Shown one piece after another: positions 3,581 through 58,435 of a DNA stretch of 64,000 bases. How positions within the stretch are numbered: position 1 is the stretch's first letter; every line of letters starts with the position of its first letter. The notes beneath the pieces were generated by a model that made no database searches, was not told the DNA's origin, and worked only from the letters and a program-made list of their open reading frames with translations. The stretch is from assembly GCA_964632865.1 (NCBI GenBank), contig CAZWDH010000001.1:10106-74105 (forward strand), in the 5' to 3' direction. Origin of the DNA: an uncultured Nitrospiraceae bacterium. Lineage in GTDB: Bacteria > Hydrogenedentota > Hydrogenedentia > Hydrogenedentales > SLHB01. Position numbers and translations under genes: made by a program.

Positions 3581-3667
3581 CGAAAGGGTCGCGCTGGAAT
3601 CGCTAAAACCTATGAGGGGGAGAGGTCCGGTGGTGCATCGAACCTCACGGAAAAACTCCGCAACCTG

Positions 3668-4807
3668 TCAGCCCCCAGCGAGAGCAAGCTGCCGACTACG
3701 GTTTCCGATCCTGCTTTCGTCGCTCGCCAGAGCGAGAAGCCTCCCAGTTTTTTCGTCCGCTTCAGCGCGATCGCCGGCGTGGGCGATCTTGGCCGACAGC
3801 CGGGTGAGCGCATCGACCACGGCGAAGATGGTGAATCGTCCCCGTTGCCGAGCGATCTCCAAGGCCGCCTTGGCCAGGGTCTTGGTGATGCCCTGCTGCT
3901 GCAGCACGGTCATCGCCTCCTCCGCGGTGGGGCCGAGTGTTTCCACACAGGCCTTTTTGATGACCTTGGCGAACGCATCGCGGCGCTGGTCACGCTTCTC
4001 AACGAGATTCGCCACAATCGTTCGAATCTCGCGGAGCGCCTCGTGTACGTTGGCTGTGTGCTTCCGCGAAAAATCAACCACCTCGACCGCGTCCCACACG
4101 ATGTGATTCGCGCACACTGCCTGAAACCAGAACGTCTGGATGCCGACCGAGCGTCGCCCGACCTCCGAATTCCAAACGAAGAATCCGGGAGCGAAAGCCT
4201 CGCCGTTGATCTCCGTCCAGCCGGTCGGGTCGATCATGAAACAGAACATGTCCTGCTCACCGCAGTACAGGCCCGTGCCGTGGGTGGGCTCCGGTTCCGG
4301 GTCCGGTTCAAAGGGCATGTCATCGTCTGACACTGCCGATCGACTGAGACCGGCCCTTTGCGGCGGCTGAAAATCCGTCGCGAACTCGCGCAGCATGGTG
4401 AGCAAGTCCACGTCCCACAGCCTCGAATACGCTACACCGTGAATGGAGCGTATCACGTCCCCTGTGGTCAGAATCTGTACCGGCCGCTCGCTGGTCGGCA
4501 GCGTCTCGTCCAACACGCGGGCCGCCGTCTGCGGCGTGAGTCGGTTGAGCGTGTCCTTGGCCACGCCGGCGAGCCGGCACAGTTGGGCAAACGACCAATC
4601 GTTGAATTGAAATGGTCGATCGCCGCCGAACGCGAGCTTGAGTTCGCCGTCCTCGACGTTTGGCCGCACGCTTTGCGGCGGGTGCCAATGGTCCATGGAC
4701 CGCTCTTTGGTCTTGAAGCAATGGTCCCAAAGCGCGGTCAGCGACGGAAAGCTTTCATCCTTCCCTCGCCGAAACAATTCCTGATTCGCTCTTGTAAGCG
4801 TCTGCAT
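3668..4807 (-). CDS. DUF932-family protein (phage/plasmid-like, TIGR03299-type), typical of ICEs, plasmids and prophages.
   Basis: 379 aa with the conserved core YCGEQDMFCFMIDPTGW...GFFVWNSEVGRRSVGIQTFWFQAVCANHIVWDAVEV. A strong RBS AAGGAGG lies 9 nt upstream of the ATG at 4807. Confidence 0.7.
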   Translation of the reverse strand: MQTLTRANQELFRRGKDESFPSLTALWDHCFKTKERSMDHWHPPQSVRPNVEDGELKLAFGGDRPFQFNDWSFAQLCRLAGVAKDTLNRLTPQTAARVLDETLPTSERPVQILTTGDVIRSIHGVAYSRLWDVDLLTMLREFATDFQPPQRAGLSRSAVSDDDMPFEPDPEPEPTHGTGLYCGEQDMFCFMIDPTGWTEINGEAFAPGFFVWNSEVGRRSVGIQTFWFQAVCANHIVWDAVEVVDFSRKHTANVHEALREIRTIVANLVEKRDQRRDAFAKVIKKACVETLGPTAEEAMTVLQQQGITKTLAKAALEIARQRGRFTIFAVVDALTRLSAKIAHAGDRAEADEKTGRLLALASDESRIGNRSRQLALAGG

Positions 4808-5031
4808 GACAACAACCTCCTTTCGGCGCCGCCTCAAAAAGCGACGCCCTGATTTGCCTTATGCACCACCGGTCCTCTCGACGCCGTGCGGAAATCCGCG
4901 AGGCATCGAAAACCGGCGACGTGTTTCTCTACCCGGATGAGGTTGTCGAAAAAAGCCGCGCCGTTGGTTGTAACCTAAGCGGGCGCGTTGGAGAGGTGGC
5001 GTCATGCGTTAGTGTCCAACCTCTCGGCGGA

Positions 5032-40074: not shown

Positions 40075-40329
40075 ATGTGGACGATCGCGGAGGTCCTCGT
40101 TCAGTGTCCCCAGGCTGCGTTGGTGTTTACGCGGTTTCGGATGGCCTGCGTGGGTTGCCCGATGGCGGCGTTCGAGACGCTGGCCGAGGCGGCGCAAGCC
40201 TATGGCCTGGCTCCGGAGGCGGTGCTTCAGGAAATCCGCGGCGCGGTCACGGAGCGAATGTCGCAGCTTCAAGCTTCAAGTCGCGGCCCCGAGAGGCGCG
40301 CGGATCGGAGGCGCACTCATGACACGTAA
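40075..40329 (+). CDS. DUF1858 (hybrid-cluster-protein-associated redox disulfide) domain protein, overlapping the norB start by 11 nt.
   Basis: MWTIAEVLVQCPQAALVFTRFRMACVGCPMAAFETLAEAAQAYGL. Confidence 0.7.
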   Translation: MWTIAEVLVQCPQAALVFTRFRMACVGCPMAAFETLAEAAQAYGLAPEAVLQEIRGAVTERMSQLQASSRGPERRADRRRTHDT

Positions 40330-42619: not shown

Positions 42620-42665
42620 GTGAATCTCGATGCGATCGTCAGAAGGCGAATCCGGAGGAAGCACT

Positions 42666-44285
42666 ATGAAAACCACGGCACTGAACGTGGAGACGCAGTC
42701 GGCCCCGCGTGAACCTGCGATCGGAAAGATGCCCGGTCACTGGCTGCTGGCCAAGATGGGCAAGCGTGTATTGCGACCCGGGGGTCTGGAGTTGACGCGT
42801 CAGCTCCTGCACGAACTGGCCATTGGTGATCGTGACGACGTTGTCGAATTCGCTCCGGGTTTGGGTGTGACGGCCCGGATGACGCTCGCCCAAAGGCCGC
42901 GGTTATACACGGCCATCGAGCGCGATCGCGATGCGGCTGACGTGGTCAACCGATATCTTTCGGGGCCGAATCAACGATGCATCATAGGCAGCGCTGAGCA
43001 GACTCACCTGCCGGACGCCTGCGCGACGGTCGTCTATGGCGAAGCCATGCTGTCGATGCAGCCGCCGGGGCACAAGAGCCGCATCGTCGCGGAAGCGGCG
43101 CGACTCCTCAGGCCGGGCAGCCGCTATGGCATTCATGAACTCTGCCTCTTGCCCGATGATCTGGAACTTTCCACGCGCGAAGCGATCCAGCGCGAACTGA
43201 CGGACGGGATTCATGTGGGCGTGCGGCCTTTGACCCGAACCGAATGGCGCGAACTGCTCGAATCCGCCGGACTGATGATCGTCGCGGAAACGACCGCACC
43301 GATGCACCTTCTAGAACCGAGGCGGCTGGTAAGAGACGAGGGACTGTTCGGCGCGATGCGGTTCCTTTGGAATGTCGCTCGAAACAAGCCGGCGCGGCGC
43401 CGCGTGTTGGCCATGCGACGGATTTTTCGCAAATACCGCAGCCACCTGGCCGCCATCGCCCTTGTGGCCATCAAGAGAAACGAAAACCCAACTTCGCCTT
43501 CGGCCGTTTCGAGCGGTATTCGAGAGCGAGAACGATCACGCCCAACGAAGGAGAATTCCATGAGTGCGTTTCAAATTCACGACACGGTCGGAGCCATCGT
43601 GGCCCGCCGCCCGGCGCTGTCGCGCGTCTTCGAACAGGAAGGAATCGACTACTGTTGCGGGGGCAAGAAGGCCCTAGACGAGGTGTGCCGGGAGAAAGGA
43701 CTCGACCCAGCGGGGCTGCTTGCCAAGTTGGAGGCACATGCCTCAACGTGCGCGGACGAGCCGGTTGTGGACGCCGCCGCGATGTCCCTCGCGGAGCTGG
43801 CCGACCACATCGAACAGACGCATCATGCCTTCCTGCGCCGCGAGCTGCCGCGCCTGGACGCCATGACCGAAAAAGTTGCCTCCGTCCACGGCGACAAGGA
43901 TGCTCGCCTGACCGAGATCAGGGGGACATTCCTCGCCCTGTCCGACGAGATGACCAGCCACATGATGAAGGAAGAGCAGATTCTGTTCCCCATGATCCGG
44001 CGGCTTGACGCCAGCAAAACAGCGCCGGCGTTTCATTGCGGTTCGCTGGCCAATCCCATTGCCCAGATGGAGCACGAGCACGATCAAGCCGGATCGGCCC
44101 TCGATCGCCTTCGTACGCTGTCGGACGGTTACACACCGCCCGAGTGGGCCTGCAATACCTATCGGGCCATGTTGGACGGCCTCGCGCATCTCGAACGGGA
44201 CATGCATCAGCACGTTCACAAGGAGAACAACATTCTGTTTCCCAAGGCAATCAAACAGGAAACGGAGCGCACTGGAAAGCAGTAG
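42666..44285 (+). CDS. Single uninterrupted ORF joining a class-I SAM-dependent methyltransferase (aa 1-~290) to a complete RIC/ScdA/YtfE-type di-iron repair protein (from the internal AGGAG-ATG at 43561).
   Basis: MTase motif I VVEFAPGLGVTARM. RIC part: ScdA_N (IDYCCGGKKALDEVC) and hemerythrin-like HxxxE repeats (HIEQTHHAF, MMKEEQILFP, MEHEHDQAG, HQHVHKENNILFP). There is no stop codon between the two parts. Confidence 0.7.
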   Translation: MKTTALNVETQSAPREPAIGKMPGHWLLAKMGKRVLRPGGLELTRQLLHELAIGDRDDVVEFAPGLGVTARMTLAQRPRLYTAIERDRDAADVVNRYLSGPNQRCIIGSAEQTHLPDACATVVYGEAMLSMQPPGHKSRIVAEAARLLRPGSRYGIHELCLLPDDLELSTREAIQRELTDGIHVGVRPLTRTEWRELLESAGLMIVAETTAPMHLLEPRRLVRDEGLFGAMRFLWNVARNKPARRRVLAMRRIFRKYRSHLAAIALVAIKRNENPTSPSAVSSGIRERERSRPTKENSMSAFQIHDTVGAIVARRPALSRVFEQEGIDYCCGGKKALDEVCREKGLDPAGLLAKLEAHASTCADEPVVDAAAMSLAELADHIEQTHHAFLRRELPRLDAMTEKVASVHGDKDARLTEIRGTFLALSDEMTSHMMKEEQILFPMIRRLDASKTAPAFHCGSLANPIAQMEHEHDQAGSALDRLRTLSDGYTPPEWACNTYRAMLDGLAHLERDMHQHVHKENNILFPKAIKQETERTGKQ

Positions 44286-44324
44286 CGTCCTGAGTACGCC
44301 CCGCAACGAAAGGAGTACGATGAA

Positions 44325-44777
44325 ATGTCCCGGATTGATGGCGTCTGCAAGGATGTGCTCGAAAAAACGGGGTGGGGCGCCATTGCCACTGCCGGACCGG
44401 ACGGTCCGCACGTCGTAGCCACTTGGGGCGATTACGTGCGGCAGTTGGGAATCGGCGATATGTTGCGGGTGCCGGTCAGGCGCATGCACAGAACTGAGGC
44501 CAATCTGACGCGCGACCCGCGAGTCGAGTTGCTCTGCGGTACTCGCCAAGTCCAGGGCGTGCACAGTCCCGGCAAAGGATGCGCGATCATCAGGCGGGCG
44601 GAGATGCAGAAGGCCGGGCCGAACTTCGCCGCCGTCAAAACGGAACTGAGCTTGATGATCAAGCCCGGCGACAGTGCCATCCCGCTTTATGATACGACCC
44701 GCATCTACGCCGAAGCCATTCTCGAATTCGCGCTCCAGCCGGCGCCCGGTTCGATCGCGGCAGGAGTCGAGCGATGA
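44325..44777 (+). CDS. Pyridoxamine-5'-phosphate-oxidase-like (split-barrel FMN-binding) protein.
   Basis: GWGAIATAGPDGPHVVATW... pattern. Its stop overlaps the next start. Confidence 0.55.
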   Translation: MSRIDGVCKDVLEKTGWGAIATAGPDGPHVVATWGDYVRQLGIGDMLRVPVRRMHRTEANLTRDPRVELLCGTRQVQGVHSPGKGCAIIRRAEMQKAGPNFAAVKTELSLMIKPGDSAIPLYDTTRIYAEAILEFALQPAPGSIAAGVER

Positions 44778-45373
44778 TCCGCGTCAAGCGCGTCTACAAT
44801 GAACCTGAAAGGCAGGACGGCATGCGCATCCTCGTCGACCGCCTGTGGCCGCGGTGGCTGAAGAAGGAGGCGGCGCGACTCGACGACTGGATGAAAGACG
44901 TTGCCCCAAGCGACGCACTCCGTCGCTGGTTCGGCCACGATCCAAAGCGTTGGGACGAGTTCCAGCGACGTTACCTCGCAGAGTTGGACGAGAAACCTGA
45001 AAGGTGGCGCACCCTGCTGGAGCGATCGCGCGTGGAGCCCATCACGCTCCTCTATGCGGCCAGTGACCCTGACTATAACAACGCCGTGGCGTTGAAACGC
45101 TATCTGGAGCGACGCGCCAAGAGGCGGCGGCCGACGACGCGCTCCGGCGAAAAGGCAGTCGCAAACCCGTCTATGCGAGCTGAATCGTCACATCGGCGGT
45201 CCCGGCATCGAGCGCCCTTTCGGACGCGTATTCACAGACGCATTCGTCCGAAAACGCCACGAGGCGTCCGTCCTTCCGCCGTTTCAGGGCCACCCAATCC
45301 TCACACGTTGCCTGCCAAGTCTCCCCGCCGATCAACTGAGCTATCGTCCACGCTCGGTGTTCATCCATCTTAG
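44774..45373 (+). CDS. DUF488 (YeaO-like) protein with an anomalous ~80-aa low-complexity C-terminal extension.
   Basis: MIRVKRVYNEPERQDGMRILVDRLWPRWLKKEAARLDDWMKDVAPSDALRRWFGHDPKRWDEFQRRY. Confidence 0.65.
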   Translation: MIRVKRVYNEPERQDGMRILVDRLWPRWLKKEAARLDDWMKDVAPSDALRRWFGHDPKRWDEFQRRYLAELDEKPERWRTLLERSRVEPITLLYAASDPDYNNAVALKRYLERRAKRRRPTTRSGEKAVANPSMRAESSHRRSRHRAPFRTRIHRRIRPKTPRGVRPSAVSGPPNPHTLPAKSPRRSTELSSTLGVHPS

Positions 45374-45434: not shown

Positions 45435-45860
45435 TCACGGCCCAGTCAGCCGCGCGCCCAGTTCTTGAATCTCACGTCCACCGATCACACCGTCATTCTC
45501 CCAATCCGCCCGGCCACAGGCCGGTTCCAATTCCCCGCCGGACAAGCCGAAGCAGTTCTGAAACGCAGCCACGTCGGTAAGGTCCTTGTCCCCGTCGTCG
45601 TCGAAGTCGGCGAAGAGGTCGGGAAACGCGTAGATACGCCGGTCGAAGTCTCCGGCGACAATTCCATCAGCCTCGACGAAATCCTCTGACTGAATGAACG
45701 CCGCCGGATCGAGAGGAGAGAAACCATCGCGGAAGTGGACTTCCAGCCGCCCGCCGAGCGTGGTCTGTCCGGTCACATGCAGCACGTCGAACTCGCCGGG
45801 GTTCTGTCCGGCATATTCCATGATCAAGGCGCCGCCGGGGAGTATCTCCAAATCTCCGTC
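45435..45860. repeat. Conserved 3' block of the paralog family (copy 1 of 3; the others are ~48335-48760 and ~51204-51630).
   Basis: Long stretches are near-identical at nucleotide level, e.g. ccggttccaattc(c/t)ccgccggaca(a/g)gccgaagcagttctgaaacgc.gccacgtcgg, between 45515 and 51290. Confidence 0.8.
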
Positions 45861-48287
45861 CATGGTCAGCGTCCCGGGGGACAATCCCGGAGAGATGATC
45901 CCGCCCGCGCTAATATGCGGAACGGCAACGGTCCCCGTGCCCATCAGCGCGCCGTTGGGATTGACGACAATGTTTCCCCTTCCGTCGATCCTCGCTTCGA
46001 CGAGGGCGACGGACCCGCCGCCCGGTCCGCCGGCGGGATTGCCGATGGTCATCGTGCCGTTGATGGTCAAGATCGCGTTCGGATCCGCCAGCAGAATCTC
46101 GCCTCGCCCGGCGGCGACGCCCACCTGCGCGTTCCCATCGACCGTCAACGAGGTGAAGAAGGTCAAGGCGATAATTCCAGTTGCGGCAGGGGTGTCGCGG
46201 CCGACCACCAACGTGTCACAACGAACGCCCGACCCGGTAAGAACGTTGAGCAAGCCGATCCCCGTGGCGCCGACCGAAAGCGCTCCATTCACGCGAAGAA
46301 ACGCAGTGTCGCGCACGGTGACCGTTCCGCTGGGGTTGCCCCCGCCCAGCCCGATCAACATTTCACCGTGGTTCTCCATGACCGCCCCGGTGTCAAGCTG
46401 CACGATGCCCGGCGCCGCGATGCCGACTTGTGTTCGCCCGTTCACCGTCAGCCTCGAACCCGGCTGGGGTTGAGCCGGCGGGTCGGAAACCACGACAATC
46501 CCCTGCGCATCCGACCCGACGAATAGACCGTTGTTTAAGACGGCGTTCGCCCCGGATCGGATGTTGAGCTGTCCCGACGCCTCGATGCCTACGGTCGTCC
46601 CTACGCCCTGCCCGCCCACGGATCCGACGGTCAGCGTGGGACCACTTCCGCTTGCACCGCGCAGCGTAACATCCGCCGAGCCGGGTCGAATCTGACGGTG
46701 TCCAATGAACAGGCTGTCGGTGCTGACTCGACCGCCATTCTGAACCACAACCTCTTGAAGCTCCGTGGCGTTGACGAAAGTGCCCCCGGAAACACCCAGG
46801 ACGCCGTCTCCACCTTGCCCATCGACGATCACTTCGCCGCTGGGGTTGGCGCCGTATCCGCCCACGACGAGATCCTCGCCGACTGTGACCCACCCGCCGC
46901 GCTCCACACTGAGACGACCACTCGCCCCGTTCCCCACGATCAGGGACATGTCCACATCGAAGTCACCGTACGAGTCGGGCGTTGAGTCATCGCCGCGGAT
47001 CGTCACGGTGCCCGCGGCGGACTTCCCGATCATCGGCGTTACGAACGAGGCCGTCGTGGCTTTGAAGAAGCCCCTGTCGATTTCCAACGTCCCGGCGGTC
47101 GCATCCCCCACGACCATCACACCGGTCATGTCGAAGAAGGAACCGTCATCCCTCACCTGCACCACACCCGGACCGTTCCCCGAACCGATCGTAAGCGCTC
47201 CCGTGGAAGCCGTACCGCCCTCGAGCACCTCCACGCTCCCCTTCCCGATTCGGGCAGATTCCGAATTCGTCCACGAGCTCCCGCCCTTGACCTCCAGTTT
47301 GGAGTTCGCGGCTCCGGTTGCACCGACGCTTGCGTGAACCGAATTCAACGATGCACCGCTCGCCAAGCGGAGTTGGCCGCCCTGGAGGATCCTGAGCGAC
47401 TCGCGGGAAGGCGGGGGGCCGCCTCCACTCGTGACCGATGCCGGGCCGACGGAAGCGGTGGAGAACACCTGAGCGCTTCCGCTGAACTCGATCGGGCTGT
47501 TGATCACAAGCCATTCAGCGGCCGTGGCGCCCGAACCGCTGACCGGGATGAACGCTCCGTTCGGAAGGGCGAAATAGGCGATGTCGCTCCTCTGTCCGTT
47601 ATGGACGGGAGCGCAATAGGCGCCTTCGCCTGAGTCCCAGTTGTTCGAATCTTGATAGGTTCCCCCGCCTGGGTTGTTCCAGTAACGTTCGTCACTGGTG
47701 ACCGTCGGCACGCATGTGACGGTCAATGTGCAGTCCACCGAGCCGGAGGAATCCATGCCATACGCGGCGCAGTTCAAGGCATAACTGGGATCGCCGTTAG
47801 GTTCTCCCGTGTCACTATCATAGTTGGGAGTGATGGGCGTGACGGTCACGACTCCCTCCTGGGTCGTCTTGTGGGCCCCGGTGGGCGTACAGAACACGTC
47901 GCCGCCCACAACGCTGGGGTCGACATACACGGAAACCTCGGCGACATGATGCCAGAAGTTCAGCTCCGCGGGATGCACACTCGCATGCGCTGTGATCGTG
48001 TAACCGGTAGGAGTCGTGGTGACGCTGAAGCTAGCTTCGGGCCCTGCACAATGGACCCACGGCCGCTTGGGGTCTTCAACATGGCATAGGCCGAAACACT
48101 CTGCCTCTCCCGTCAAATCTCCGATGTTTCCTACCGATTCGCTGCAAATCCATTGAGTCTGCGCGAACGCCAGCGGGTTGATCCTGAAGTCCTCCAGATG
48201 TCCATCGAGGCAATCCGCCCGGACCTTGCCGGCGATGAGCAACAACGACAGAACCATGAGGCATCCGTCTCGGATCAAGCTCGACAT
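45435..48287 (-). CDS. Large secreted protein, paralog 1: signal peptide, autotransporter-associated beta-strand (PATR)-like repeats and a C-terminal dockerin-like EF-hand pair.
   Basis: N-terminal MSSLIRDGCLMVLSLLLIAG; repeated GG..L...G/TIG.G.G.V blocks. C-terminal FADFDDDGDKDLTDVAAFQNCFG...ADWENDGVIGGREIQELGARLTGP. Confidence 0.78.
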   Translation of the reverse strand: MSSLIRDGCLMVLSLLLIAGKVRADCLDGHLEDFRINPLAFAQTQWICSESVGNIGDLTGEAECFGLCHVEDPKRPWVHCAGPEASFSVTTTPTGYTITAHASVHPAELNFWHHVAEVSVYVDPSVVGGDVFCTPTGAHKTTQEGVVTVTPITPNYDSDTGEPNGDPSYALNCAAYGMDSSGSVDCTLTVTCVPTVTSDERYWNNPGGGTYQDSNNWDSGEGAYCAPVHNGQRSDIAYFALPNGAFIPVSGSGATAAEWLVINSPIEFSGSAQVFSTASVGPASVTSGGGPPPSRESLRILQGGQLRLASGASLNSVHASVGATGAANSKLEVKGGSSWTNSESARIGKGSVEVLEGGTASTGALTIGSGNGPGVVQVRDDGSFFDMTGVMVVGDATAGTLEIDRGFFKATTASFVTPMIGKSAAGTVTIRGDDSTPDSYGDFDVDMSLIVGNGASGRLSVERGGWVTVGEDLVVGGYGANPSGEVIVDGQGGDGVLGVSGGTFVNATELQEVVVQNGGRVSTDSLFIGHRQIRPGSADVTLRGASGSGPTLTVGSVGGQGVGTTVGIEASGQLNIRSGANAVLNNGLFVGSDAQGIVVVSDPPAQPQPGSRLTVNGRTQVGIAAPGIVQLDTGAVMENHGEMLIGLGGGNPSGTVTVRDTAFLRVNGALSVGATGIGLLNVLTGSGVRCDTLVVGRDTPAATGIIALTFFTSLTVDGNAQVGVAAGRGEILLADPNAILTINGTMTIGNPAGGPGGGSVALVEARIDGRGNIVVNPNGALMGTGTVAVPHISAGGIISPGLSPGTLTMDGDLEILPGGALIMEYAGQNPGEFDVLHVTGQTTLGGRLEVHFRDGFSPLDPAAFIQSEDFVEADGIVAGDFDRRIYAFPDLFADFDDDGDKDLTDVAAFQNCFGLSGGELEPACGRADWENDGVIGGREIQELGARLTGP

Positions 48288-48334
48288 AAACCTCTCCCCT
48301 CTCTCGGGCGTGTCGCCTTTATGAACACGGCGGC

Positions 48335-51157
48335 TTACCGCGGTCCGCTGAGTCGGGCCGTCAGTTCGCGTACCTCTATTTCGTTGAGAACGCCGTTATC
48401 CTCCCAATCGGCTCGGGCACAAGCGAGTTCCAATGCCGCACCCGACAACCCGAAGCAATTTTGGAACGCGGCCACGTCAAAAAAGTCCTTGTCGCCGTCG
48501 TCGTCGAAGTCCGCGAAGATGTCGGGGAAGGCGTAGATGCGCTGGTCGTAGTCGCCCATGATGACCCCATCGGCCTCGACGAAATCTTGTGACTGAACGA
48601 ATGCCACCGGATCATCTGGCGAAAAGCCGTCGCGGAAGTGAATCTCCAACCGTCCGCCAAGCGTGGTTTGTCCCGTCACGTGCAAGACGTCGAATTCGCC
48701 GGGATTCAGTCCGGCATATTCGATCACGACCACTCCGCCGGGAAGGATGTCCAAATCACCGTCGATGGTGAGCGTGCCGGGTGAAAGACCCGGGGAGATG
48801 TACCCACCGGCCGAAACGTGCGGGACGGCCACCGTCCCCGTCCCGGTCAGGCTGCCGTTCTTATTGACCACGATGTTCCCGGTCCCGTCGATCAAAGCGT
48901 CCACGAGCGCGACGGCGCCACCGCCGGGACCGCCGCCGGGACTGCCGATGGTCATCGTGCCGTTGATCTCAAGTCTTCCGCTCGGATCGGCGAGCAGAAT
49001 CTCGCCCCGACCGGCGCCCATACCGACCTGCGCGTTCCCATACACCGTCAAATGCGAAAAGCCAGGATTCACCGAAACATTGGGAACGAACGATGCCACG
49101 ATGATTCCCGTCGCTCCGAACGTGTTGCCGCCCACGAGCAGGGTGTCGCAAGTAACGTGCGAGGGAAACATTCCCGGCTCATCGACAATGTTGAGCAGCC
49201 CGATCCCCGACGCCCCCACGGCGAGTGTCCCGTGGATCCATAGGTGCGATCCGGAGTTCAGGTTGACCGATCCGCTGGGATTGTCGCCGCCCAGCCCGAT
49301 CTTCAGATCCCCGTGGGTTTCCAGGAACGCGTCGTGGTCAAGCTGCACGATGCCCGGAGCGCCAATGCCGACCTGCGTTTCGCCGTTCACCGTCAGCCCT
49401 GTGGCCGGACCCGGAGGGTTGTTCAGCCCCGAAACCATCACAATCCCCTGCGCTCCCTCCCCCACGTGCAGTCCATTGTACAGTTCCGCTCGCGCCGCGG
49501 ACTGAAGGTTGAGCTGTCCCGGCACGACCTCGCCCACAAAAGTTCCTGCCCCCCCTCCGCCGGCAATTAATCCCACGGTCAGCGTGGGATAGTTCCCGAC
49601 GGGGCCCCGAAGCGTGACATCCGCCGTCCCAGGCCGAATCTGACTATTCCCGATGAAAAGCTCCTTGGTGCTGAACTCACCGCCGTTCTGAACGAGAACT
49701 TCCTGCAACTCCGTGGCGTTGACGAAGGTTCCCCTATGAACATCGAGGGCGGCGCCCCCGCCCTGACCGTCCACCACTACCTCCCCGCCGCCGGCGCCGG
49801 CGCCATAGCCGCCCACCACAAGGTCCGGGTTGATGTTGGCTTGTCCCCCGCGCATGATGTTAAGTCGCCCGCTCGCCCCGTCGCCGACAATCAGGGAGTA
49901 ATCTGCCACCTGAAAATATCCGGACGAGTCGACGTGGGAGTCATCGCCGCGGACCGTCACCGTGCCGGGGGCCGACTTGCCGATCCGCGGGGTCACGGTC
50001 ACCGGGGTCACGATCAGGGAGCCCTTGTCGAGTTCCACGGTTCCGGCGGTCGTGTCCCCCACGTAGAGCACGTCATTCACGTCGAACCTGGAACCAACGC
50101 CGGTCACGCGAACCGATGCCGCACCATTCCCCGAGCCGATAGTCAGGGATTTGGTAGAGCCCGTGCCGCCGTCCAGCACATCCAAAATTCCCCGCCCGAT
50201 CTTGGCGGACTCCGTGTTGGTCCAACGCCCTCCTTTGACTTCCAGCATGGAGTTCGTCGCCCCGCTTGCCCCGACGCTTGCGTGAACCGAATCCAGGGAG
50301 GCCCCGCTGGCCAGGCGGAGCTGCCCGCCAGTCCGAATAACTAGCGATGGGTTGGTCGCTGACGTCGAGAACACTTGCCCACTTCCGCTGAACGCGATCA
50401 GGCTGTTCTGCACGATCCACTGCCCAGCCGTTGCAAGGGGGCCCGCCGTCACCGGAATGTGGTTTGCTGTTGCCAATTGGAACATCGCTGAATCGCTCCG
50501 TTGGGTGTCATGGACCGGAGCGCAGTAACCTGAAAACGACGACGCCCAGTTGGTCGCATCTTCGTATGCGCCGCCGCTTGGGCTTGACCAGAACCGGTAT
50601 CCGCTGGACACGGTGGGAGTACAGGTAACTGTTTGCGTGCACGCAACCGCACCAGGAACAGTACGACCGCCAGCCCAGCAAAAGAAGGGAGTTCCGGGCC
50701 CCGTCGTAACCGTCTCGACGCCTTCGATTACAGTTTTACTAACAGTGTCGTACGTGCAGGCCACTTCACCGCCGACCCGTTGAAAGCTAATGTAGGCATT
50801 GCTCAAACCTGCACTCTGAAGGACACCCAGCGAGGGATTCACCGCGGCGCTCACCGTAATCGTGTATCCGGTCGGTGAAGTACTCACGCTGTAAGTCGTT
50901 TCCGGACCCGGGCAAGGCACGTATTCGTCATCCCCCAGGCACAGGTTGGGACACTCGGCCCCACCGGAATTGCTCAGCATGACCGGCCTTTCGTCGCAGT
51001 ACGGTAAAGGTGCAACACCAAAATCCCGGTGCGCCCAGATGAAAACCTCGAAACCGAAGTTCTCTACGTGTCCGTCGAGGCAATCCGCGCGGCCCCTGCC
51101 GGCGACAACAAGCAGCGTTAAGGCGACGAGACGCGCGTTTCGATTCCAAATCCTCAT
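48335..51157 (-). CDS. Large secreted protein, paralog 2, with the same architecture. The true start is probably Met 51157 (MRIWNRNARLVALTLLVVAG).
   Basis: Shares the N-terminal ADCLDGHxExF region, the PATR-like repeats and a nearly identical C-terminal ~140 aa with paralogs 1 and 3. Confidence 0.78.
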   Translation of the reverse strand: MRIWNRNARLVALTLLVVAGRGRADCLDGHVENFGFEVFIWAHRDFGVAPLPYCDERPVMLSNSGGAECPNLCLGDDEYVPCPGPETTYSVSTSPTGYTITVSAAVNPSLGVLQSAGLSNAYISFQRVGGEVACTYDTVSKTVIEGVETVTTGPGTPFFCWAGGRTVPGAVACTQTVTCTPTVSSGYRFWSSPSGGAYEDATNWASSFSGYCAPVHDTQRSDSAMFQLATANHIPVTAGPLATAGQWIVQNSLIAFSGSGQVFSTSATNPSLVIRTGGQLRLASGASLDSVHASVGASGATNSMLEVKGGRWTNTESAKIGRGILDVLDGGTGSTKSLTIGSGNGAASVRVTGVGSRFDVNDVLYVGDTTAGTVELDKGSLIVTPVTVTPRIGKSAPGTVTVRGDDSHVDSSGYFQVADYSLIVGDGASGRLNIMRGGQANINPDLVVGGYGAGAGGGEVVVDGQGGGAALDVHRGTFVNATELQEVLVQNGGEFSTKELFIGNSQIRPGTADVTLRGPVGNYPTLTVGLIAGGGGAGTFVGEVVPGQLNLQSAARAELYNGLHVGEGAQGIVMVSGLNNPPGPATGLTVNGETQVGIGAPGIVQLDHDAFLETHGDLKIGLGGDNPSGSVNLNSGSHLWIHGTLAVGASGIGLLNIVDEPGMFPSHVTCDTLLVGGNTFGATGIIVASFVPNVSVNPGFSHLTVYGNAQVGMGAGRGEILLADPSGRLEINGTMTIGSPGGGPGGGAVALVDALIDGTGNIVVNKNGSLTGTGTVAVPHVSAGGYISPGLSPGTLTIDGDLDILPGGVVVIEYAGLNPGEFDVLHVTGQTTLGGRLEIHFRDGFSPDDPVAFVQSQDFVEADGVIMGDYDQRIYAFPDIFADFDDDGDKDFFDVAAFQNCFGLSGAALELACARADWEDNGVLNEIEVRELTARLSGPR

Positions 51158-51203
51158 ACATTTCTCCTCGCTCCCGGACATGCCGCGCTATCCATTCGAC
51201 GGC

Positions 51204-54158
51204 TTATCGCGGTCCGCTGAGCCGGGCCGTCAGTTCGCGTACCTCTACCTCGTTGAGAACGCCGTTATCCTCCCAATCTGCGCGGCTACAAGCCGGTTCC
51301 AATTCTCCGCCGGACAGGCCGAAGCAGTTCTGAAACGCGGCCACGTCGGCGAGGTCTTTGTCCCCGTCGTCGTCGAAGTCGGCGAAGATATCCGGAAAGG
51401 CGTAGATGCGCTGGTCGTAGTCACCGGTGACAATCCCCTCCGACTCGACGAAATCCTGCGACTGAATGAACGCCGTCGGGTCATCCGGCGAAAAGCCGCC
51501 GCGGAAGTGAACTTCCAGCCGTCCGCCGAGGCTCGTTTGACCGGTGATGTGCAACACGTCGAACTCGCCGGGATTCGGGCCGTGATGCTCAAGGATCAGC
51601 ACCCCGCCGGGCAACAGTTCCAGGTCGCCGTCGATGTTAAGCGTTCTCAGCCCGCCCGGAGCGGCGACCGTAGATTGGGTTGCCCCCTGCAATCGCGACG
51701 GAGTCGATACGGAAATATTCGGACTGAGAGTGCCTTGGTTCACCAAGCCAAAAAACCCCACAGCAAGAGTGCCCGTGCCGGCGATCACGCCGTTGGGGGT
51801 GATGTACGTCCCGTCGGTCGCAACCAGGGCGTCGTTTTGCATATCCAACTGGCCGCTGCCGCCCCCGACTTGGCCCACCTGCAAGATTTCCAGGGCGCGC
51901 ACAAATCCACCGTCCACGGTGAGCGAACCGGTTCCGTTCGTGCCGGCCTGCCCCCCAATCTCGATGTTGCGGCAGCGTAGCAGGCCGCCTTCGTCAAGGG
52001 ACACGCCGCCATCAAACTCGCGACCAATGGCGCACAGACCGGCCTGCGGATCCACCACCTCCAAGAAAGTCGGATTCGAAGTAACCGCAGTGCCCCACAA
52101 GATCGCCGCGCCGACGCCCTCCTTGCCGATGATCAAATCGCCGTCGATGTCGCCCTTGGCCGCGTTCCAAAAGGCCAAGAGGTTGGCGCTGCCCGCGCCG
52201 CCGACGAACACGCTGCCCAGCACGTCCAGGTCTGAGGGGTCTCCGTTTGAATGGCGACCGTCGATGCGGAGTTCGCCATTCTTGATTTGAACGTTTTGGC
52301 TGACATACAGGTCGCCGCCATTCAGCACCTCTATGTAGCCAAAGCCGGTCTGCCCAATGGTCAAATTGCCCAAGAGCGCCCACAGGGATGCCTGACTAGT
52401 GCCCGCGCCGACGCCTTCAATCGTCACGTTCGAGTCTCCGCTGATGATGCCGAAGCTAACGAACGCATCGTTCGAGTTCACGCGCCCGCCGCTCTCGATG
52501 GTCAGGGTGCCGAGGGCGCCATAGCCCACGGCAATGTTGCCGGTGTCCCATAGCGAACCATCTCCGCCCACTACCGCTGTGCCGGGTGCCGTTGGCAGCA
52601 AGCCGCCCAGACGCGCCTCGGCGCTGGTCAGATGACCGCCATTGGCCACAAACAGGTCGCCCGCCCCTTCGTCGCCGATAGACAGCCGCCCCGTGCCGTT
52701 CAGACTGGTGCCGCTGTTGAACACCTGCAAATGGGCGATGGATGGATTTGTGGGTGGATCCCCGCCGATGATGGCGTGGATCATATTCCCCGCACCCGAA
52801 GTGATCTTGACCGTCCCCCCATCGTTGACGGTCAGCGCCGGTTCCGTCACCGAATCGTCCAGTAGATTCAAAGACAAATTGACGAAATCGACCGTGTTGG
52901 TGCCGGATATGATTGCTCGACGCACCGGAAAGGTGGCCGCCGGCGTGGCTGCGGTGAATGCGGCGCTGGCATCTACCGTGTATTGCCCACTCAGGGCAAA
53001 GACGACGGTATCGCCATCGCCGGGGTCGCCCTGCGGGTCCCAGTTCGTAGTCACGTGCCACGAGCCGCCGCTCGCGTTAATCCAGCGATACGCCTGTGGC
53101 TTGAGCAGGAAGGCACGACCCTGGCCGTTGAAATTCCCCTCACCGACGATCTGGCCCTTGCTATTGATGGCGTGCGCTTTAGTCAATTCCCAACCTGAAC
53201 CCGGCGGGATCAAGTTGTTGAGGTCCTGCATCTGGCCGTTCTCCCACAGGAAGGCGCGAAGCCGACCGGCGGGAGTGAGGATGTACGAGTGGCCGACTAC
53301 CTGGCCCTGGTCGTTGATGTCCAATGCAACGTTGAATATCTGCCCTCCCAGGGTGCCCAGGTCTTGCATGCCGCCGTTCTGCCACAAGAAGGGGCGTTGT
53401 GTGTCACCATTTATAAACGATTCTCCCACCACCTGGACGGCATTGTTAATCGCATACGCCTGACTGTTCGGACCTCCCAGGGTGCCCAGGTCTTGCATCG
53501 ATCCACCCTGCCACAGGAAGGCATAGAATGGCTCACGATGAACGCGCTCGGAATGGCCGACTACTTGGCCAGCGTCGTTGATGTCGGTAGCTAGGCTACT
53601 GTTCCCTCCCAGGGTGCCCAGGTCCTGCATCGAGCCGTTCTGCCACAAGAAGGCGCGCATCTGCTGTGTGCTGTTGAGTGACCAACCCGCTACTTGCCCG
53701 GAACTATTTACCCCATATGCCTCGCCGCTATTACCGCCGAACGTGCCCAGGTCTTGCATGTCGCCGTTCTGCCACAAGAAGGGGCGTCCCCCTCCGCTGC
53801 TGGTAAGTGCCATCCCAACAATTTGGCCGGCATCGTTGATATCGTTTGCCCGACTCATTTGCCCACCCAGCGTTCCCAGGTCGGTCATCACCCCGTCTTC
53901 CCACAGAAAAGCATGGGTATTTCCGCCGGAAGTGGCTGACCAGCCGACCACCTGACCCTCGTCGTTAATACCGTAGGCTCCGCTGGACGACCCTCCCAGC
54001 GTGCCCAGGTCGGTGATGGCGTAGCGCGGACCGGCAGGCGGGTTAGCCTGGAGTGCCGTTTGCCCGTTTGTCGCCAAGGGAGATGCTCCCAGTTGCGCTA
54101 CGCCAAACAGGGATAGCAACAGTGCAATCAACGCGACCGAAAAAAGTGATTGTTTCAT
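51204..54158 (-). CDS. Large secreted protein, paralog 3: eight or more N-terminal HAF-family extracellular repeats, then PATR-like repeats and the dockerin-like C-terminus.
   Basis: Repeats D(L/M)GTLGG..S.A..IN..GQVVG.S.....HAFLW..G.MQDLGTLGG; signal peptide MKQSLFSVALIALLLSLFGVAQLGA. Confidence 0.8.
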   Translation of the reverse strand: MKQSLFSVALIALLLSLFGVAQLGASPLATNGQTALQANPPAGPRYAITDLGTLGGSSSGAYGINDEGQVVGWSATSGGNTHAFLWEDGVMTDLGTLGGQMSRANDINDAGQIVGMALTSSGGGRPFLWQNGDMQDLGTFGGNSGEAYGVNSSGQVAGWSLNSTQQMRAFLWQNGSMQDLGTLGGNSSLATDINDAGQVVGHSERVHREPFYAFLWQGGSMQDLGTLGGPNSQAYAINNAVQVVGESFINGDTQRPFLWQNGGMQDLGTLGGQIFNVALDINDQGQVVGHSYILTPAGRLRAFLWENGQMQDLNNLIPPGSGWELTKAHAINSKGQIVGEGNFNGQGRAFLLKPQAYRWINASGGSWHVTTNWDPQGDPGDGDTVVFALSGQYTVDASAAFTAATPAATFPVRRAIISGTNTVDFVNLSLNLLDDSVTEPALTVNDGGTVKITSGAGNMIHAIIGGDPPTNPSIAHLQVFNSGTSLNGTGRLSIGDEGAGDLFVANGGHLTSAEARLGGLLPTAPGTAVVGGDGSLWDTGNIAVGYGALGTLTIESGGRVNSNDAFVSFGIISGDSNVTIEGVGAGTSQASLWALLGNLTIGQTGFGYIEVLNGGDLYVSQNVQIKNGELRIDGRHSNGDPSDLDVLGSVFVGGAGSANLLAFWNAAKGDIDGDLIIGKEGVGAAILWGTAVTSNPTFLEVVDPQAGLCAIGREFDGGVSLDEGGLLRCRNIEIGGQAGTNGTGSLTVDGGFVRALEILQVGQVGGGSGQLDMQNDALVATDGTYITPNGVIAGTGTLAVGFFGLVNQGTLSPNISVSTPSRLQGATQSTVAAPGGLRTLNIDGDLELLPGGVLILEHHGPNPGEFDVLHITGQTSLGGRLEVHFRGGFSPDDPTAFIQSQDFVESEGIVTGDYDQRIYAFPDIFADFDDDGDKDLADVAAFQNCFGLSGGELEPACSRADWEDNGVLNEVEVRELTARLSGPR

Positions 54159-54363: not shown

Positions 54364-54801
54364 TTACGCCAGGCAATGGACCGTCTCGCAGAGCGCCCTG
54401 CCGCACGCGCTGCCCTTCAAGACCTCGGCCACGGTCGTTTGAGCAAGGACTCGCTCGGCCTGGGCCAAGACGTCATCCAGCCGCTGGTGCAGCGGACATA
54501 AGTGATCGCCGTGGGTTTCCCTGCCCAGCGGGCAGCGTTCGATCCGCTGGACTCGGCCAACGGCGTTGATCACATCCAGAACCGAGATCCGGTGCGGTTC
54601 TCGGGCCAGCACAAAGCCCCCCGTCCGACCCGGCGTCGACGCGACGAGCCCGGCCCGGCTCAACGCCTGGAGAACCTTGGAAAGGTAGCCAGGCGGAACC
54701 GCCGTCCGGCGGGCGATCTCCGGCGTGCTGAGCGCCCCCTCCGGATGGCTGGCCAACCACACGACCGCTCGAAGAGCGTACTCCGCGCTTTGTGAGATCA
54801 T
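54364..54801 (-). CDS. Rrf2-family transcriptional regulator (NsrR/IscR-like, Cys-containing).
   Basis: MISQSAEYALRAVVWLASHPEG...PPGYLSKVLQALSRAGLVASTPGRTGGFVLAR, plus a C-terminal Cys cluster. Confidence 0.85.
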   Translation of the reverse strand: MISQSAEYALRAVVWLASHPEGALSTPEIARRTAVPPGYLSKVLQALSRAGLVASTPGRTGGFVLAREPHRISVLDVINAVGRVQRIERCPLGRETHGDHLCPLHQRLDDVLAQAERVLAQTTVAEVLKGSACGRALCETVHCLA

Positions 54802-54894
54802 GCTGATATATCCTCTTCAGCCCGGTGTTTTGCCAGTTCTTTTCCGGCCAACCTGGACCTTGACATCCATATTTTAGCCGGTAGCCTGAGAAAA

Positions 54895-54918
54895 GTAAAC
54901 CTGGATGTCCAGGTTTAC
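54895..54918. promoter_or_regulatory. 24-bp palindrome GTAAACCTGGA-tg-TCCAGGTTTAC (perfect 11-nt arms) in the divergent Rrf2/ccp intergenic region; candidate Rrf2 operator.
   Basis: The reverse complement is identical apart from the 2-nt centre. A degenerate half-site, aacctggaccttgacatcca, sits ~40 bp upstream. Confidence 0.5.
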
Positions 54919-55023
54919 TTGTGGCTTCGGTCGGCGGCAAAGAGCGGGGCCGCACCTCGGGGGACGAGTCATGGTCTCGTTCCGTACGAGTTCGCTTGTA
55001 GTTTGGCGTTTACGAATGGAGAA

Positions 55024-56379
55024 ATGGCCATGAGAACACGGTGGTTTCCGCCTTCCGTCGGTTGCGTGCTGGCGTTGTTTGTGACCGGGTGCCCGGAAAT
55101 CCTACCCGGAACGGAGGACTCCGTTGTCGATGAGTCACTGCGAGCGGTTCTGGACGACGCCGCCGTAACACCCGTAACCAAACCGACGGTGGACGCTCCA
55201 AAGGTCAAGCTCGGGCAGATGTTGATGTTCGACAAGATCCTGAGCGGGAATCGCAACATATCCTGCGCTACCTGTCACCATCCGGCGGTCGGCACCGGCG
55301 ATGGCTTGTCGCTTTCCAAAGGACAAGGAGGCGTCGGACTCGCGCAGTCGCGATCGACGCCGCTGGGTGCAGATGGACAACCGATATTGATTCCGCGGAA
55401 TGCGCCGGACGTTTTCAACCGCGGCGATTTTGACACAATGTTCTGGGACGGCCGCGTTCATCGCAACGACGACGGATCGTTTACGACGCCGGCCGGTGAG
55501 CAGCTCCCCCCCGGATTAGACAGCGCTCTCGCGGCCCAGGCCATGTTTCCGGTTACGTCGCGCGAGGAAATGCGCGGCCACGTTGGTGAAAACGAACTGG
55601 CCGACCTGCCCGACGACGACCTGCCCGGCATTTGGGTCGGTCTGATGGCTCGTCTGCTGGCGATTGAAGAGTACCGCGACTTATTTGACGCGGCCTATCC
55701 CGGAACGGTCGAGTCCGTCTTGACCTTTGCGCACGCAGCCAACGCCATCGCTGCCTTTGAGGTGGATCACTGGACTCTGGATGACAGCCCCTTCGATCAT
55801 TACCTGCGCGGCGACGACTCCGCCATGTCTAGTTCGTCCAAGCGCGGGGCGCTGTTGTTCTACGGTGAGGCCGGCTGCGCGACTTGTCACTCCGGTCCGC
55901 TGCTGACGGATCAGGAGTTCCACGCCGTCAGCGTTCCGCAGCTTGGCCCCGGAAAAGGCCACGGCGACGACGGGCTTTCCGACTTTGGGCGTGAGGCGGT
56001 CTCCGGCGATGCGAGCGATCGTTACAAATTCCGGACTCCGTCGCTGCGCAACGTCGCGGCCACGGGACCCTGGATGCACGACGGCGCTTTTACAGACTTG
56101 GAAGCAACCGTGCGCCACATGCTCGATCCCATCACTGCGGCATCCGCGTATGATCAAACACAGCTCGCGCCGGAATTTCGCGCCTTGTACCACGCGGAGC
56201 AGACCCCGGCGATCGTGGCCGCGATTGACTCCGATGAACTGTCTGCGGTGACTTTGACGGACGAAGAGGTCGCGGACTTGATGGCGTTCCTGCACGCGTT
56301 GACTTCACCATCCGCGGCCTCGTTGCCGATGGTGGACATTCCCGACCGCGTGCCCAGCGGCCTGCCGCTGGCGGATTGA
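55024..56379 (+). CDS. Di-haem cytochrome c peroxidase (CCP/MauG family), probably a lipoprotein.
   Basis: Two CxxCH motifs (CATCHHP, CATCHSG), the conserved PSLRNV and WMHDGAF, and a signal peptide with VTGC. Confidence 0.88.
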   Translation: MAMRTRWFPPSVGCVLALFVTGCPEILPGTEDSVVDESLRAVLDDAAVTPVTKPTVDAPKVKLGQMLMFDKILSGNRNISCATCHHPAVGTGDGLSLSKGQGGVGLAQSRSTPLGADGQPILIPRNAPDVFNRGDFDTMFWDGRVHRNDDGSFTTPAGEQLPPGLDSALAAQAMFPVTSREEMRGHVGENELADLPDDDLPGIWVGLMARLLAIEEYRDLFDAAYPGTVESVLTFAHAANAIAAFEVDHWTLDDSPFDHYLRGDDSAMSSSSKRGALLFYGEAGCATCHSGPLLTDQEFHAVSVPQLGPGKGHGDDGLSDFGREAVSGDASDRYKFRTPSLRNVAATGPWMHDGAFTDLEATVRHMLDPITAASAYDQTQLAPEFRALYHAEQTPAIVAAIDSDELSAVTLTDEEVADLMAFLHALTSPSAASLPMVDIPDRVPSGLPLAD

Positions 56380-56437: not shown

Positions 56438-58435
56438 ATGTCCACGGCGACTCCGTTCTTCCGACGGCATGCAGCTGCACTGGTGGCGACCGTGCTGGTT
56501 GCGAGCTGTTACGCATTCACCCGCCTTCCCGCACCGTCTGCTGCGGAGCGAGCCGCGCTGGCAGTTCGATTCCGGTTCACGCGGTCGGCGCTCCCTGAGT
56601 TGATCACGTCGTCGCAGAAATCCGTTCGGACGGTTCATCCAAGTTTGACCCGGATATCCTCATGGATATCCGCAACCGGCGCCGCTGCCGCTCTTGAAGA
56701 CCTCGATGGGGATGGACTTCCCAACGACCTATCCTGGGTCGATCCACGAGTCGACGAGGTAATCATTACGCCGGTTCCGGAAACCGGTCAGCGCTTCCAG
56801 CCATTCGTTTTGAACCCGGCTCCTCTTCCCTATGACCCGGGCACGATGGCGCCGATGGGCAGCATGACCGCGGATCTAAACGAAGATGGCCTCATGGACA
56901 TTCTTGCATATTACTGGGGGCGCACTCCGGTTGCGTTCTTGAGAAAGGGAGTTTCTCCCGAGATCGCAGGAGCGGCGACCTCAGGGGGTCTGTCGGCAAC
57001 GGCGTTCGTTCCATGTGAAGTCGCCTCTAGCATTCAGCGTTGGTACACCAGCAGTGCCACCCTCGCCGACCTCGATGGCGATGGACATGTCGATATCGTG
57101 ATCGGCAACTACTTCCAGGACGGCGCTCGCATTCTCGATGCAAAAGCCTCCGGGGTCGAAATGATGCACGATACCAAGTCGAAGTCCTTTAATGGCGGCT
57201 GGAACAGGTTACTGCTTTGGAAGGCAGCAACGGCGGGCGGAGCACCCAGCGTGCAGTTTACCGACGTGGAGGACGTATTGGACGAGGATGTCGCTCGTGC
57301 ATGGACGCTCGCCGTCGGCGCGGCCGATATCGATGGCGACCTGCTCCCGGAAATCTACTTTGCTAATGATTTCGGTCCCGATCGTCTCCTCCACAATCGT
57401 TCGACCCCCGGCAGCCTTCGTTTTGGCGTACTGGAGGGAAAAGGCACGCTCGGCACTCCAGCTTCATTCGTCTTAGGTCATGACTCGTTCAAGGGTATGG
57501 GAGTGGATTTTGGAGATGTAAACGGGGATGGGTTCCTCGATATTTATGTAAGCAACATCGCCAGGGAGTTCGGATTGCAGGAAAGTCACTTCTTGTGGCT
57601 GTGTACGGGCGAGTTTGACAAGATGAAAGATGGCGCCGCGCCCTACGTGCAGGCAAGCGAATCCCTGGGGTTGTCCCGGAGTGGATGGGGATGGGAATCG
57701 CGACTAGCGGACTTCGATAATGATGGGACCTTGGAAGCGATTCAGGCCGTGGGCTTCATCAAGGGCCAGAACAATCGCTGGGCTGCATTGCAGTCGCTGG
57801 TTACGGCCAATGATCAAATGATGCACAATCCCAAGCTTTGGCCCCGGTTTCAACCGGGCGACGATCTCAGCGGTTACGATCCCAACGCCTTCTTTGTTCG
57901 GGCCAGCGACGGGCGCTACGTCGATGTCGCAAGTGAAATCGATCTTGACCAACCGATGGTAAGTCGCGGCATCGCCGTCGCCGACGTGGACGCAGATGGT
58001 GACCTGGACTTCGCACTCGCCAACCAATGGGAACAATCCTATTTCTATCGCAATGATAGCCCCCAGCAGAACGCGTTTCTTGCAATGCGGCTTTTGCTGC
58101 CGCTCGGAAGCCAAAAGCTCCCTGCTGTGACCGTTTACCGGGGGCGTCGCGGACCTGACTTGGAGGGACGCGCGGCTATCGGCGCCGTAGCGACGGTGCA
58201 CCTTCCCGACGGCCGACGCCTTGTCGGTCATGTTGACGGCGGAAACGGACATTCAGGCAAGCGAAGCCAAGATTTGCATTTTGGGCTCGGTCAACTGGCA
58301 GATGAGGCAGAGCTTCAAGTGGATCTGCGCTGGCGTGACGCTGACGGTCGCGATCACCGTGAAACGGTGCACGTGAAGCCCGGATGGCAGACCATTCAAC
58401 TCGGATGTCAGCACAGCGGAGGAGAAACATCATGA
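56438..58435 (+). CDS. FG-GAP/VCBS-repeat protein with a C-terminal ASPIC/UnbV domain (CRTAC1-like).
   Basis: Repeated DLDGDGxxD Ca-binding loops (ADLDGDGHVDIV, ADIDGDLLPE, DVNGDGFLDIY, DVDADGDLDF). C-terminal GNGHSGKRSQDLHFGLG. Confidence 0.8.
   Translation: MSTATPFFRRHAAALVATVLVASCYAFTRLPAPSAAERAALAVRFRFTRSALPELITSSQKSVRTVHPSLTRISSWISATGAAAALEDLDGDGLPNDLSWVDPRVDEVIITPVPETGQRFQPFVLNPAPLPYDPGTMAPMGSMTADLNEDGLMDILAYYWGRTPVAFLRKGVSPEIAGAATSGGLSATAFVPCEVASSIQRWYTSSATLADLDGDGHVDIVIGNYFQDGARILDAKASGVEMMHDTKSKSFNGGWNRLLLWKAATAGGAPSVQFTDVEDVLDEDVARAWTLAVGAADIDGDLLPEIYFANDFGPDRLLHNRSTPGSLRFGVLEGKGTLGTPASFVLGHDSFKGMGVDFGDVNGDGFLDIYVSNIAREFGLQESHFLWLCTGEFDKMKDGAAPYVQASESLGLSRSGWGWESRLADFDNDGTLEAIQAVGFIKGQNNRWAALQSLVTANDQMMHNPKLWPRFQPGDDLSGYDPNAFFVRASDGRYVDVASEIDLDQPMVSRGIAVADVDADGDLDFALANQWEQSYFYRNDSPQQNAFLAMRLLLPLGSQKLPAVTVYRGRRGPDLEGRAAIGAVATVHLPDGRRLVGHVDGGNGHSGKRSQDLHFGLGQLADEAELQVDLRWRDADGRDHRETVHVKPGWQTIQLGCQHSGGETS

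Follow-up and report, generated by a model that had tools for sequence, protein, structure and literature searches.

To our knowledge, dockerin-like modules are common in Planctomycetota and almost none of them has a known partner or role. The present work concerns three tandem genes, here called g1, g2 and g3, whose products carry export signals and end in a module of this kind. The genes lie in a 64,000-nucleotide stretch of DNA from an uncultured bacterium (assembly GCA_964632865.1, contig CAZWDH010000001.1, positions 10,106 to 74,105 of the forward strand), referred to below as the window, and coordinates are counted from its first letter. Three described systems invite comparison. With the type I dockerins (PF00404), those of non-cellulosomal kind in Planctomycetota among them, the module of g1–g3 shares a length of about 60 amino acids (aa), two 12-residue acidic calcium loops each with a helix, a short linker, a strictly terminal position on secreted modular proteins, and profile homology; the structures that its model matches best are solved dockerins, and the motif FQxCFxG...C is common to it and to planctomycete-type dockerins. 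It differs in falling below the Pfam gathering score, in an invariant Lys at position 8 of loop 1 where dockerins have Val or Ile, and in a second loop of the form DWE..G....E; moreover, neither a cohesin nor carbohydrate-active enzymes were found near g1–g3, and the cargo is a predicted beta-helix repeat protein rather than an enzyme. The second comparison is with proteins built of TIGR04393 and HAF (TIGR02913) repeats, since each body has a TIGR04393 match and g3 has seven stretches of HAF_rpt as well; those proteins, however, end in a YLP-box ultrashort tail, a PEP-CTERM segment or an autotransporter barrel, whereas g1–g3 end in the dockerin-type module, and the Cys-rich N-terminal domain of g1 and g2 is lineage-specific. 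The third is the ‘planctosome’, proposed for the Nemodlikiaceae (freshwater Phycisphaerae) by Andrei et al. 2019 as Ca-dependent cohesin–dockerin surface complexes with no cellulose-degrading role, in a model for which both the peptidases that serve as cargo and the anchor and adaptor proteins that bear the cohesins have been identified (PMC6461901). The relatives of g1–g3 belong to the same class, Phycisphaerae, and are likewise secreted proteins with dockerin modules, but the cargo here resembles adhesins, the subtype of dockerin diverges, and no cohesin was found. Judging from where the tail sits, from its modelled fold and from what dockerins are known to do, we propose with moderate confidence that g1–g3 are exported adhesin-like beta-helix proteins with exchangeable heads, which the dockerin-type module would tether non-covalently to a putative partner; this agrees in spirit with the planctosome proposal (PMC6461901).

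A preliminary description of the locus had treated the C-terminal ~140 aa of the three proteins as one near-identical, dockerin-like unit. A shared block is indeed present and was delimited by tblastn and alignments as the last 146 aa of g1 (45438..45875), g2 (48338..48775) and g3 (51207..51644), all on the minus strand; tblastn found no further copy of the shared module elsewhere in the window. Near-identity, however, overstates a resemblance of 75–82% in protein and about 76–82% in nucleotide sequence, and the block is not a single unit. In a profile search of 1.84 billion representative proteins, the complete 146 aa turned up in only ~16 clusters, in proteins of 670–1122 aa. Positions 1–60 constitute a beta-strand cap (TLxIxGD...GEFDxLxVTGxxxLGGxLEV) that was found in ~2000 proteins, often repeated inside giant ones, and positions 86–146 matched modules of other proteins. 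The block is a composite of a separate, widespread cap without a Pfam name, which takes up the first ~80 aa, a linker, and a two-loop Ca module of 58–59 aa. In g1 and g2, which are 58% identical in protein along their whole length (50–77% nucleotide identity per 50-codon window), conservation of the C-terminus exceeds that of the remaining sequence only moderately, and a sharp contrast is confined to g3, whose body is ~28% identical to g1 and g2 and whose last ~146 residues are ~80% identical.

What kind of module closes these proteins? In g1 it comprises the last 58 aa (45438..45611, minus strand), which run from loop 1 (DFDDDGDKDLTD) through a Cys pair to loop 2 (DWENDGVIGGRE) and a final helix, a tail form that we call variant A; in g2 (48338..48514) and g3 (51207..51383), on the same strand, it comprises the last 59 aa and follows variant B (DWEDNGVLNEIEVRELTARLSGPR in g2). 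Loop 1 has the form DFDDDGDKDLxD and places Asp at the canonical Ca-ligand positions 1, 3, 5, 9 and 12, while loop 2, which reads DWEDNGVLNEVE or DWENDGVIGGRE, offers D, E, N/D, N/G and E at the same positions. The two EF-hand/dockerin-like loops and conserved Cys pair of the preliminary description are borne out by conservation: 19 family sequences show no variation in the Cys pair or in the first acidic loop, and in a set of 27 sequences loop 1 never varies at positions 1, 5, 9 and 12 and both Cys are kept in at least 90%. Ca binding by the loops would follow from these residues, and a disulfide between the two Cys is probable. The isolated tail aligned with Pfam Dockerin_1 over model positions 3–55 of 57 (14.1 bits, E 0.056), and the proteins matched by the tail part of the family profile are themselves Dockerin_1-positive at 35–48 bits. 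When the last 66 residues of the family were compared by hhalign with those Dockerin_1-positive modules, a probability of 99.3% was returned (E 2.8e-20). At the level of structure, an AlphaFold2 model of the 66-aa tail of g3 (predicted local distance difference test score, pLDDT, 76.8) adopts a loop–helix, short helix or linker, loop–helix topology, and its top Foldseek matches in the PDB are all dockerins from cohesin–dockerin complexes (2ozn_B, 2ccl_B, 2vn5_D and 5lxv_B), with template-modelling (TM) scores of 0.59–0.68 and root-mean-square deviations of 2.4–3.7 Å, as compared with TM ~0.3 for calmodulin-type EF-hand pairs. Homology thus supports the assignment of the last ~59 residues to a dockerin-type two-loop Ca module, and the modelled dockerin fold is supportive rather than proven.

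Several observations weigh against this assignment and the tethering role built on it. The isolated tail does not reach the Dockerin_1 gathering score of 22.9 bits, so that the dockerin-like character is supported at the profile and fold level and fails at the Pfam threshold, and the full-length g1, g2 and g3 proteins gave no Dockerin_1 match at E≤1. The hhalign score is somewhat inflated because the modules used as its target were picked from the family’s own profile matches. Besides the Lys of loop 1, the second loop is atypical in having Trp at position 2 and Glu at position 12. The Foldseek E-values were at least 1, as is usual for a query of 66 residues, and for this reason the support for the fold is that of ranking and TM-score alone; the usable model came from the 66-aa tail by itself, whereas the 146-aa block by itself was poorly folded in AlphaFold2 (pLDDT 42). 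Searches of PDB sequences with phmmer and hmmsearch returned only non-significant calmodulin, recoverin and dockerin matches. Lastly, neither a cohesin (PF00963) nor any other candidate receptor was present in the ~40 open reading frames (ORFs) of the window or among the neighbours of related genes at four loci in other genomes (L005, L009, L010 and L011), in keeping with the earlier remark that a partner is not obvious in the window.

Since the block occupies the exact position at which related proteins carry YLP-box, PEP-CTERM or type V secretion system (T5SS) domains, one alternative is that it is a secretion or sorting signal of a lineage-specific machine, removed or modified after transport in the manner of PEP-CTERM or the C-terminal domain (CTD) of the type IX secretion system (T9SS). 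Its extreme conservation and its strictly C-terminal position in 44 distinct sequences would fit such a role, and neighbouring proteins of the relatives use IPTL-CTERM sorting, which indicates that C-terminal sorting systems exist in this lineage. However, the NCBIfam sorting-signal models (PEP-CTERM, IPTL-CTERM, YLP-box, T9SS CTD and others) matched neither the 146-aa nor the 65-aa tails in any family at E≤10, and no sorting-domain model of Pfam matched either; control tails in the same scan returned IPTL_CTERM at 22 bits, above its cutoff, and a weak YLP-box match. A known sorting signal, which the preliminary description had named as an outcome that would overturn the dockerin-like reading, was looked for with controls that matched and was not found. 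The tail also has no transmembrane helix or basic end, no candidate sorting enzyme adjoins the genes, and the module is modelled as a folded dockerin-type domain rather than a short signal. Taken together, we regard a sorting function as improbable.

The bodies to which the module is attached were assigned with the NCBIfam models for TIGR04393, a T5SS/PEP-CTERM-associated repeat (cutoff 23 bits), and HAF_rpt TIGR02913 (cutoff 22.65 bits). TIGR04393 scored above cutoff in all three proteins, at 30.4 bits in g1 (E 2.9e-7, four stretches), 24.0 bits in g2 (E 2.9e-5) and 42.9 bits in g3 (E 3.5e-11), and g2 additionally gave a weak match to the passenger of the autotransporter EprS. The “PATR-like” label given to these beta-strand repeats earlier was right as to the kind of repeat and wrong as to the family, for Pfam PATR (PF12951) had no match at E≤1 in g1, g2 or g3; PATR does occur in the database protein P0099, a distant relative of the module family. 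The repeats suggest that the body of each protein is a beta-helix. At the N-terminal end, the first ~175 aa of mature g1 and g2 are Cys-rich and had no family match. The head of g3 consists instead of HAF repeats (53094..54017, minus strand, about residues 48–355; 289.4 bits, E 3.2e-88), which HAF_rpt matched in this protein only and which comprise seven units of ~45 aa of the pattern DLGTLGG...GQVVG...AFLW; their presence had been reported correctly, and the count of “eight or more” is to be lowered to seven. This region probably forms a seven-bladed propeller, as its repeats suggest, and DUF3466 over it was the sole Pfam match in a scan of the three full proteins. Neither the full proteins nor the isolated tails showed a C-terminal autotransporter barrel or PEP-CTERM anchor in the Pfam and NCBIfam scans.

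How did so different a head come to stand before the same tail? Sliding identity along g3 shows that residues 1–810 are 70–97% identical in windows (55–66% overall) to YLP-tailed HAF proteins and 0–43% identical to g1 and g2, while residues 841–984 are 70–96% identical to g1 and g2 and ~25% identical to the YLP family. The junction (51645..51728, minus strand, residues 811–838) falls in the linker of residues 811–840 (~51640-51730). The relatives of the g3 body number in the thousands, are ~950 aa long and 55–66% identical, combine HAF and TIGR04393 repeats, and come from metagenome-assembled genomes (MAGs) of Anaerolineae, Caldilineae, Thermoanaerobaculia, ‘Deltaproteobacteria’, Binatia and others; two such YLP-tailed genes stand in tandem at another locus (L008 8001-13586). 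Because 55–66% identity is unusually high across several phyla, the sequences suggest that the spread of this ~950-aa family between phyla was horizontal. The relatives end in ...EALNDGVPLG..LPLVxR, a weak match to the NCBIfam YLP-box/ultrashort_CTERM putative sorting motif. A second chimera, P0176 (locus L007), switches at the same point as g3 but has a tail of type A rather than B, and its body is nearest to different YLP-tailed proteins (85–95% identity in windows). The bodies of g3 and P0176 were never sisters in 100 bootstrap replicates, and HAF passengers have therefore been joined to the module in at least two recombination events, in each case with the module standing in place of the YLP-box tail of the nearest relatives. 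The notion of variable passengers on a constant module, put forward in the preliminary description, thus holds on an evolutionary timescale.

These chimeras also bear on a simpler explanation, namely that the Ca-loop tail is only a structural cap that folds on Ca outside the cell and stabilises or ends the beta-helix (compare RTX-type proteins), with no dedicated partner. Such a role would accord with the lack of a cohesin in the window and the syntenic loci, and with the fact that the module always follows the beta-strand cap, an element widespread where beta-helix proteins end or their parts are joined; the two Ca loops and the probable disulfide are of a kind that lends stability, and strong purifying selection (see below) fits a folding role equally well. 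On the other hand, a homologous cap closes the helix in the proteins most closely related to g3, which do without a Ca module, and the module has been grafted onto foreign bodies in place of a putative sorting tail, which suggests a function of its own. A generic cap also does not predict discrete tail variants in fixed gene order across four genomes, and the structural resemblance is to dockerins, which are known to act in binding. We therefore consider a purely structural role unlikely, although it is the most probable of the alternatives to tethering.

The preliminary description had further proposed that nucleotide identity is very high at the 3' ends and that gene conversion is ongoing. 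Were the locus an actively homogenising cassette, in which conversion keeps the 3' module identical and leaves the passengers free to differ (one use of which could be surface variation), the tandem arrangement and the mosaic structure of g3 would be expected, and g3 has two short patches of 91–92% nucleotide identity, the first of 40 codons and closest to g1 (synonymous divergence, dS, 0.49), the second of 26 codons and closest to g2 (dS 0.30); trees of bodies and modules also disagree in places. Yet the longest exact nucleotide matches between any two of the genes are 25–31 nucleotides (nt), and the nucleotide identity of the block, given above, does not bear out the claim of very high identity. 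In the module dS is 0.8–1.1 (saturated), about the same as the 1.16 found in the g1–g2 bodies, whereas the nonsynonymous divergence (dN) is 3–4 times lower in the module (0.08–0.15) than in the bodies (0.33). The rationale for invoking purifying selection is this equality of dS combined with the lower dN, and the likeness of the modules is kept by such selection on the protein, acting on two old and distinct variants. Moreover, the tail of g1 is 58% identical to that of g2 and, being of type A, 92% identical to its positional counterparts in two other genomes; tails that are nearer to their positional counterparts than to their own neighbours are the opposite of what concerted evolution would produce. 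Homogenisation by ongoing conversion is largely refuted by these data and is in our view very improbable, and the two patches in g3, which are small samples, hint at most at older short-tract exchange. The earlier account is thus largely right with corrections as an observation and partly supported as an interpretation, its dockerin-like element standing and its gene-conversion element falling.

The family itself is rare. Twelve word-index matches and 17 full-length relatives of g1 were recovered, the nearest of them in MAGs of Phycisphaerae and Phycisphaerales, which would place the source bacterium in the Phycisphaerae (Planctomycetota) as well. A survey of 185,579 species genomes yielded four family loci, each in a MAG of Phycisphaerae or Planctomycetota. 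On every contig of sufficient length the genes stand in tandem (two at L005, two at L001, of which one is frameshifted, and three at L009), and a B-tail gene followed by an A-tail gene recurs in four genomes, those of the window, L005, L001 and L009. The split B-tail gene of L001 (2054-4912) is divided into three ORFs of 203, 359 and 254 aa; either it is a pseudogene, or the frameshifts stem from the assembly of a contig whose coverage is low (about 3.7x). The 44 distinct modules include 8 of type A, 12 of type B, 11 of type C, 2 of type D and 9 intermediates; the first loop–helix is nearly invariant among them, and the second loop and helix are variable, in the discrete forms A, B, C and D.

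How would proteins of this kind reach and be held at their site of action? By our account a Sec signal peptide would export each protein, and its long beta-helix-type body of TIGR04393 repeats would resemble those of autotransporter passengers and PEP-CTERM surface proteins. The head varies, for g1 and g2 have a Cys-rich domain there and g3 has one of seven HAF repeats, and each protein would end in the beta-strand cap followed by the ~59-aa module with its two EF-hand-like Ca loops and probable disulfide. This tail would bind a putative partner non-covalently and in a Ca-dependent manner, and would thereby keep the proteins at the cell surface or within a complex, a proposal made because it sits where relatives have a T5SS barrel, a PEP-CTERM segment or a YLP-box. 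The variable second loop–helix, in its forms A to D, may tune the choice of partner. A bolder and doubtful extension of the tethering model is that the tail variants are distinct docking specificities that place beta-helix paralogs at defined sites of a Phycisphaerae surface scaffold without a recognisable cohesin. Such a scaffold would be planctosome-like with adhesin or propeller heads in the place of enzymes, it might include an MtrC-like multihaem cytochrome, and the module would act as a portable address tag, one that has more than once captured passengers gained by horizontal transfer.

The head-to-tail arrangement of three minus-strand genes over 8.7 kb was described correctly, the ORFs lying exactly where they had been placed: g1 at 45435..48287 (950 aa), its paralog g2 at 48335..51181 (948 aa) and the mosaic g3 at 51204..54158 (984 aa). 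All three are real genes, since exact or close database counterparts exist for each; the g1 product is identical to the database protein P0013, and the counterpart of g2, P0167, has 940 aa, which corresponds to an alternative start at a second Met at 51157. Because the intergenic gaps are only 22–47 bp, the genes probably form a single operon, with g3 transcribed first, then g2 and then g1; promoter and terminator scans did no better than on shuffled sequence. The signal peptides reported earlier are readable at each N-terminus as Sec-type signals with a basic n-region and a hydrophobic core of 10–14 residues, and their predicted cleavage contexts are VRA|DC, GRA|DC and LGA|S. A lipoprotein signal is ruled out, because an Asp comes before the Cys after the cleavage site and no lipobox is formed. 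Plus-strand ORFs that overlap g1–g3 were taken as antisense artefacts of high-GC sequence, and the other 950-aa ORF of the window (9621-12473) encodes an unrelated P-type ATPase.

Around the three genes the window holds what appears to be a nitrosative and oxidative stress neighbourhood (40202-45373 and 54364-56379). An Rrf2-family regulator (54364..54801, minus strand; Pfam Rrf2 E 2.7e-32) lies directly upstream of g3 and by synteny is the same neighbour at L001 and L009. On the other side are qNor (40202-42619) and a single ORF (42630-44285) that fuses an S-adenosylmethionine (SAM) methyltransferase to a ScdA/RIC hemerythrin, and the neighbourhood also includes a PNPOx-like protein, a DUF488 protein and a di-haem cytochrome c peroxidase (54919-56379). 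In three related genomes an MtrC/MtrF-like multihaem cytochrome is encoded directly upstream of the tandem family genes, at L005 (5064-7502), L009 (1863-3956) and L010 (7500-9860), and the end of that of L009 consists of a dockerin-like segment of its own and, after it, an IPTL-CTERM anchor (TIGR04174, 22 bits). No MtrC-like cytochrome gene occurs in the window, where g3 adjoins Rrf2. FG-GAP/ASPIC (UnbV) proteins occur near family genes in the window (56438-58435), at L010 (4515-7155) and at L007 (3476-6838). A Peptidase_S74 domain, which serves endosialidase and tail-spike proteins as their intramolecular chaperone, forms the C-terminus of a 749-aa plus-strand ORF (60117-62366) in the GC-richest stretch of the window (0.677), and an 843-aa Peptidase_S74 protein stands directly after the family gene at L010 (13013-15544). 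Farther away, a ParB_N/HTH_ParB protein (590 aa) adjoins a DUF932 protein at 1029-4837, and a pairing of ParB with DUF932 is typical of integrated mobile elements or plasmids.

The family offers a compact case in which a sharply defined, lineage-restricted dockerin subtype has been placed where relatives carry sorting or anchor signals, with the further features of grafting onto a horizontally mobile HAF passenger and of paired variants in fixed gene order. If the tail were only a folding cap, the locus would be an ordinary paralog cluster, and in either case the idea of a gene-conversion cassette is not supported. If, however, the tail is a Ca-dependent tether, the locus would show how planctomycetes put large adhesin-like proteins on display with neither an autotransporter barrel nor an exosortase signal, and the module would also be a bait for the missing receptor.

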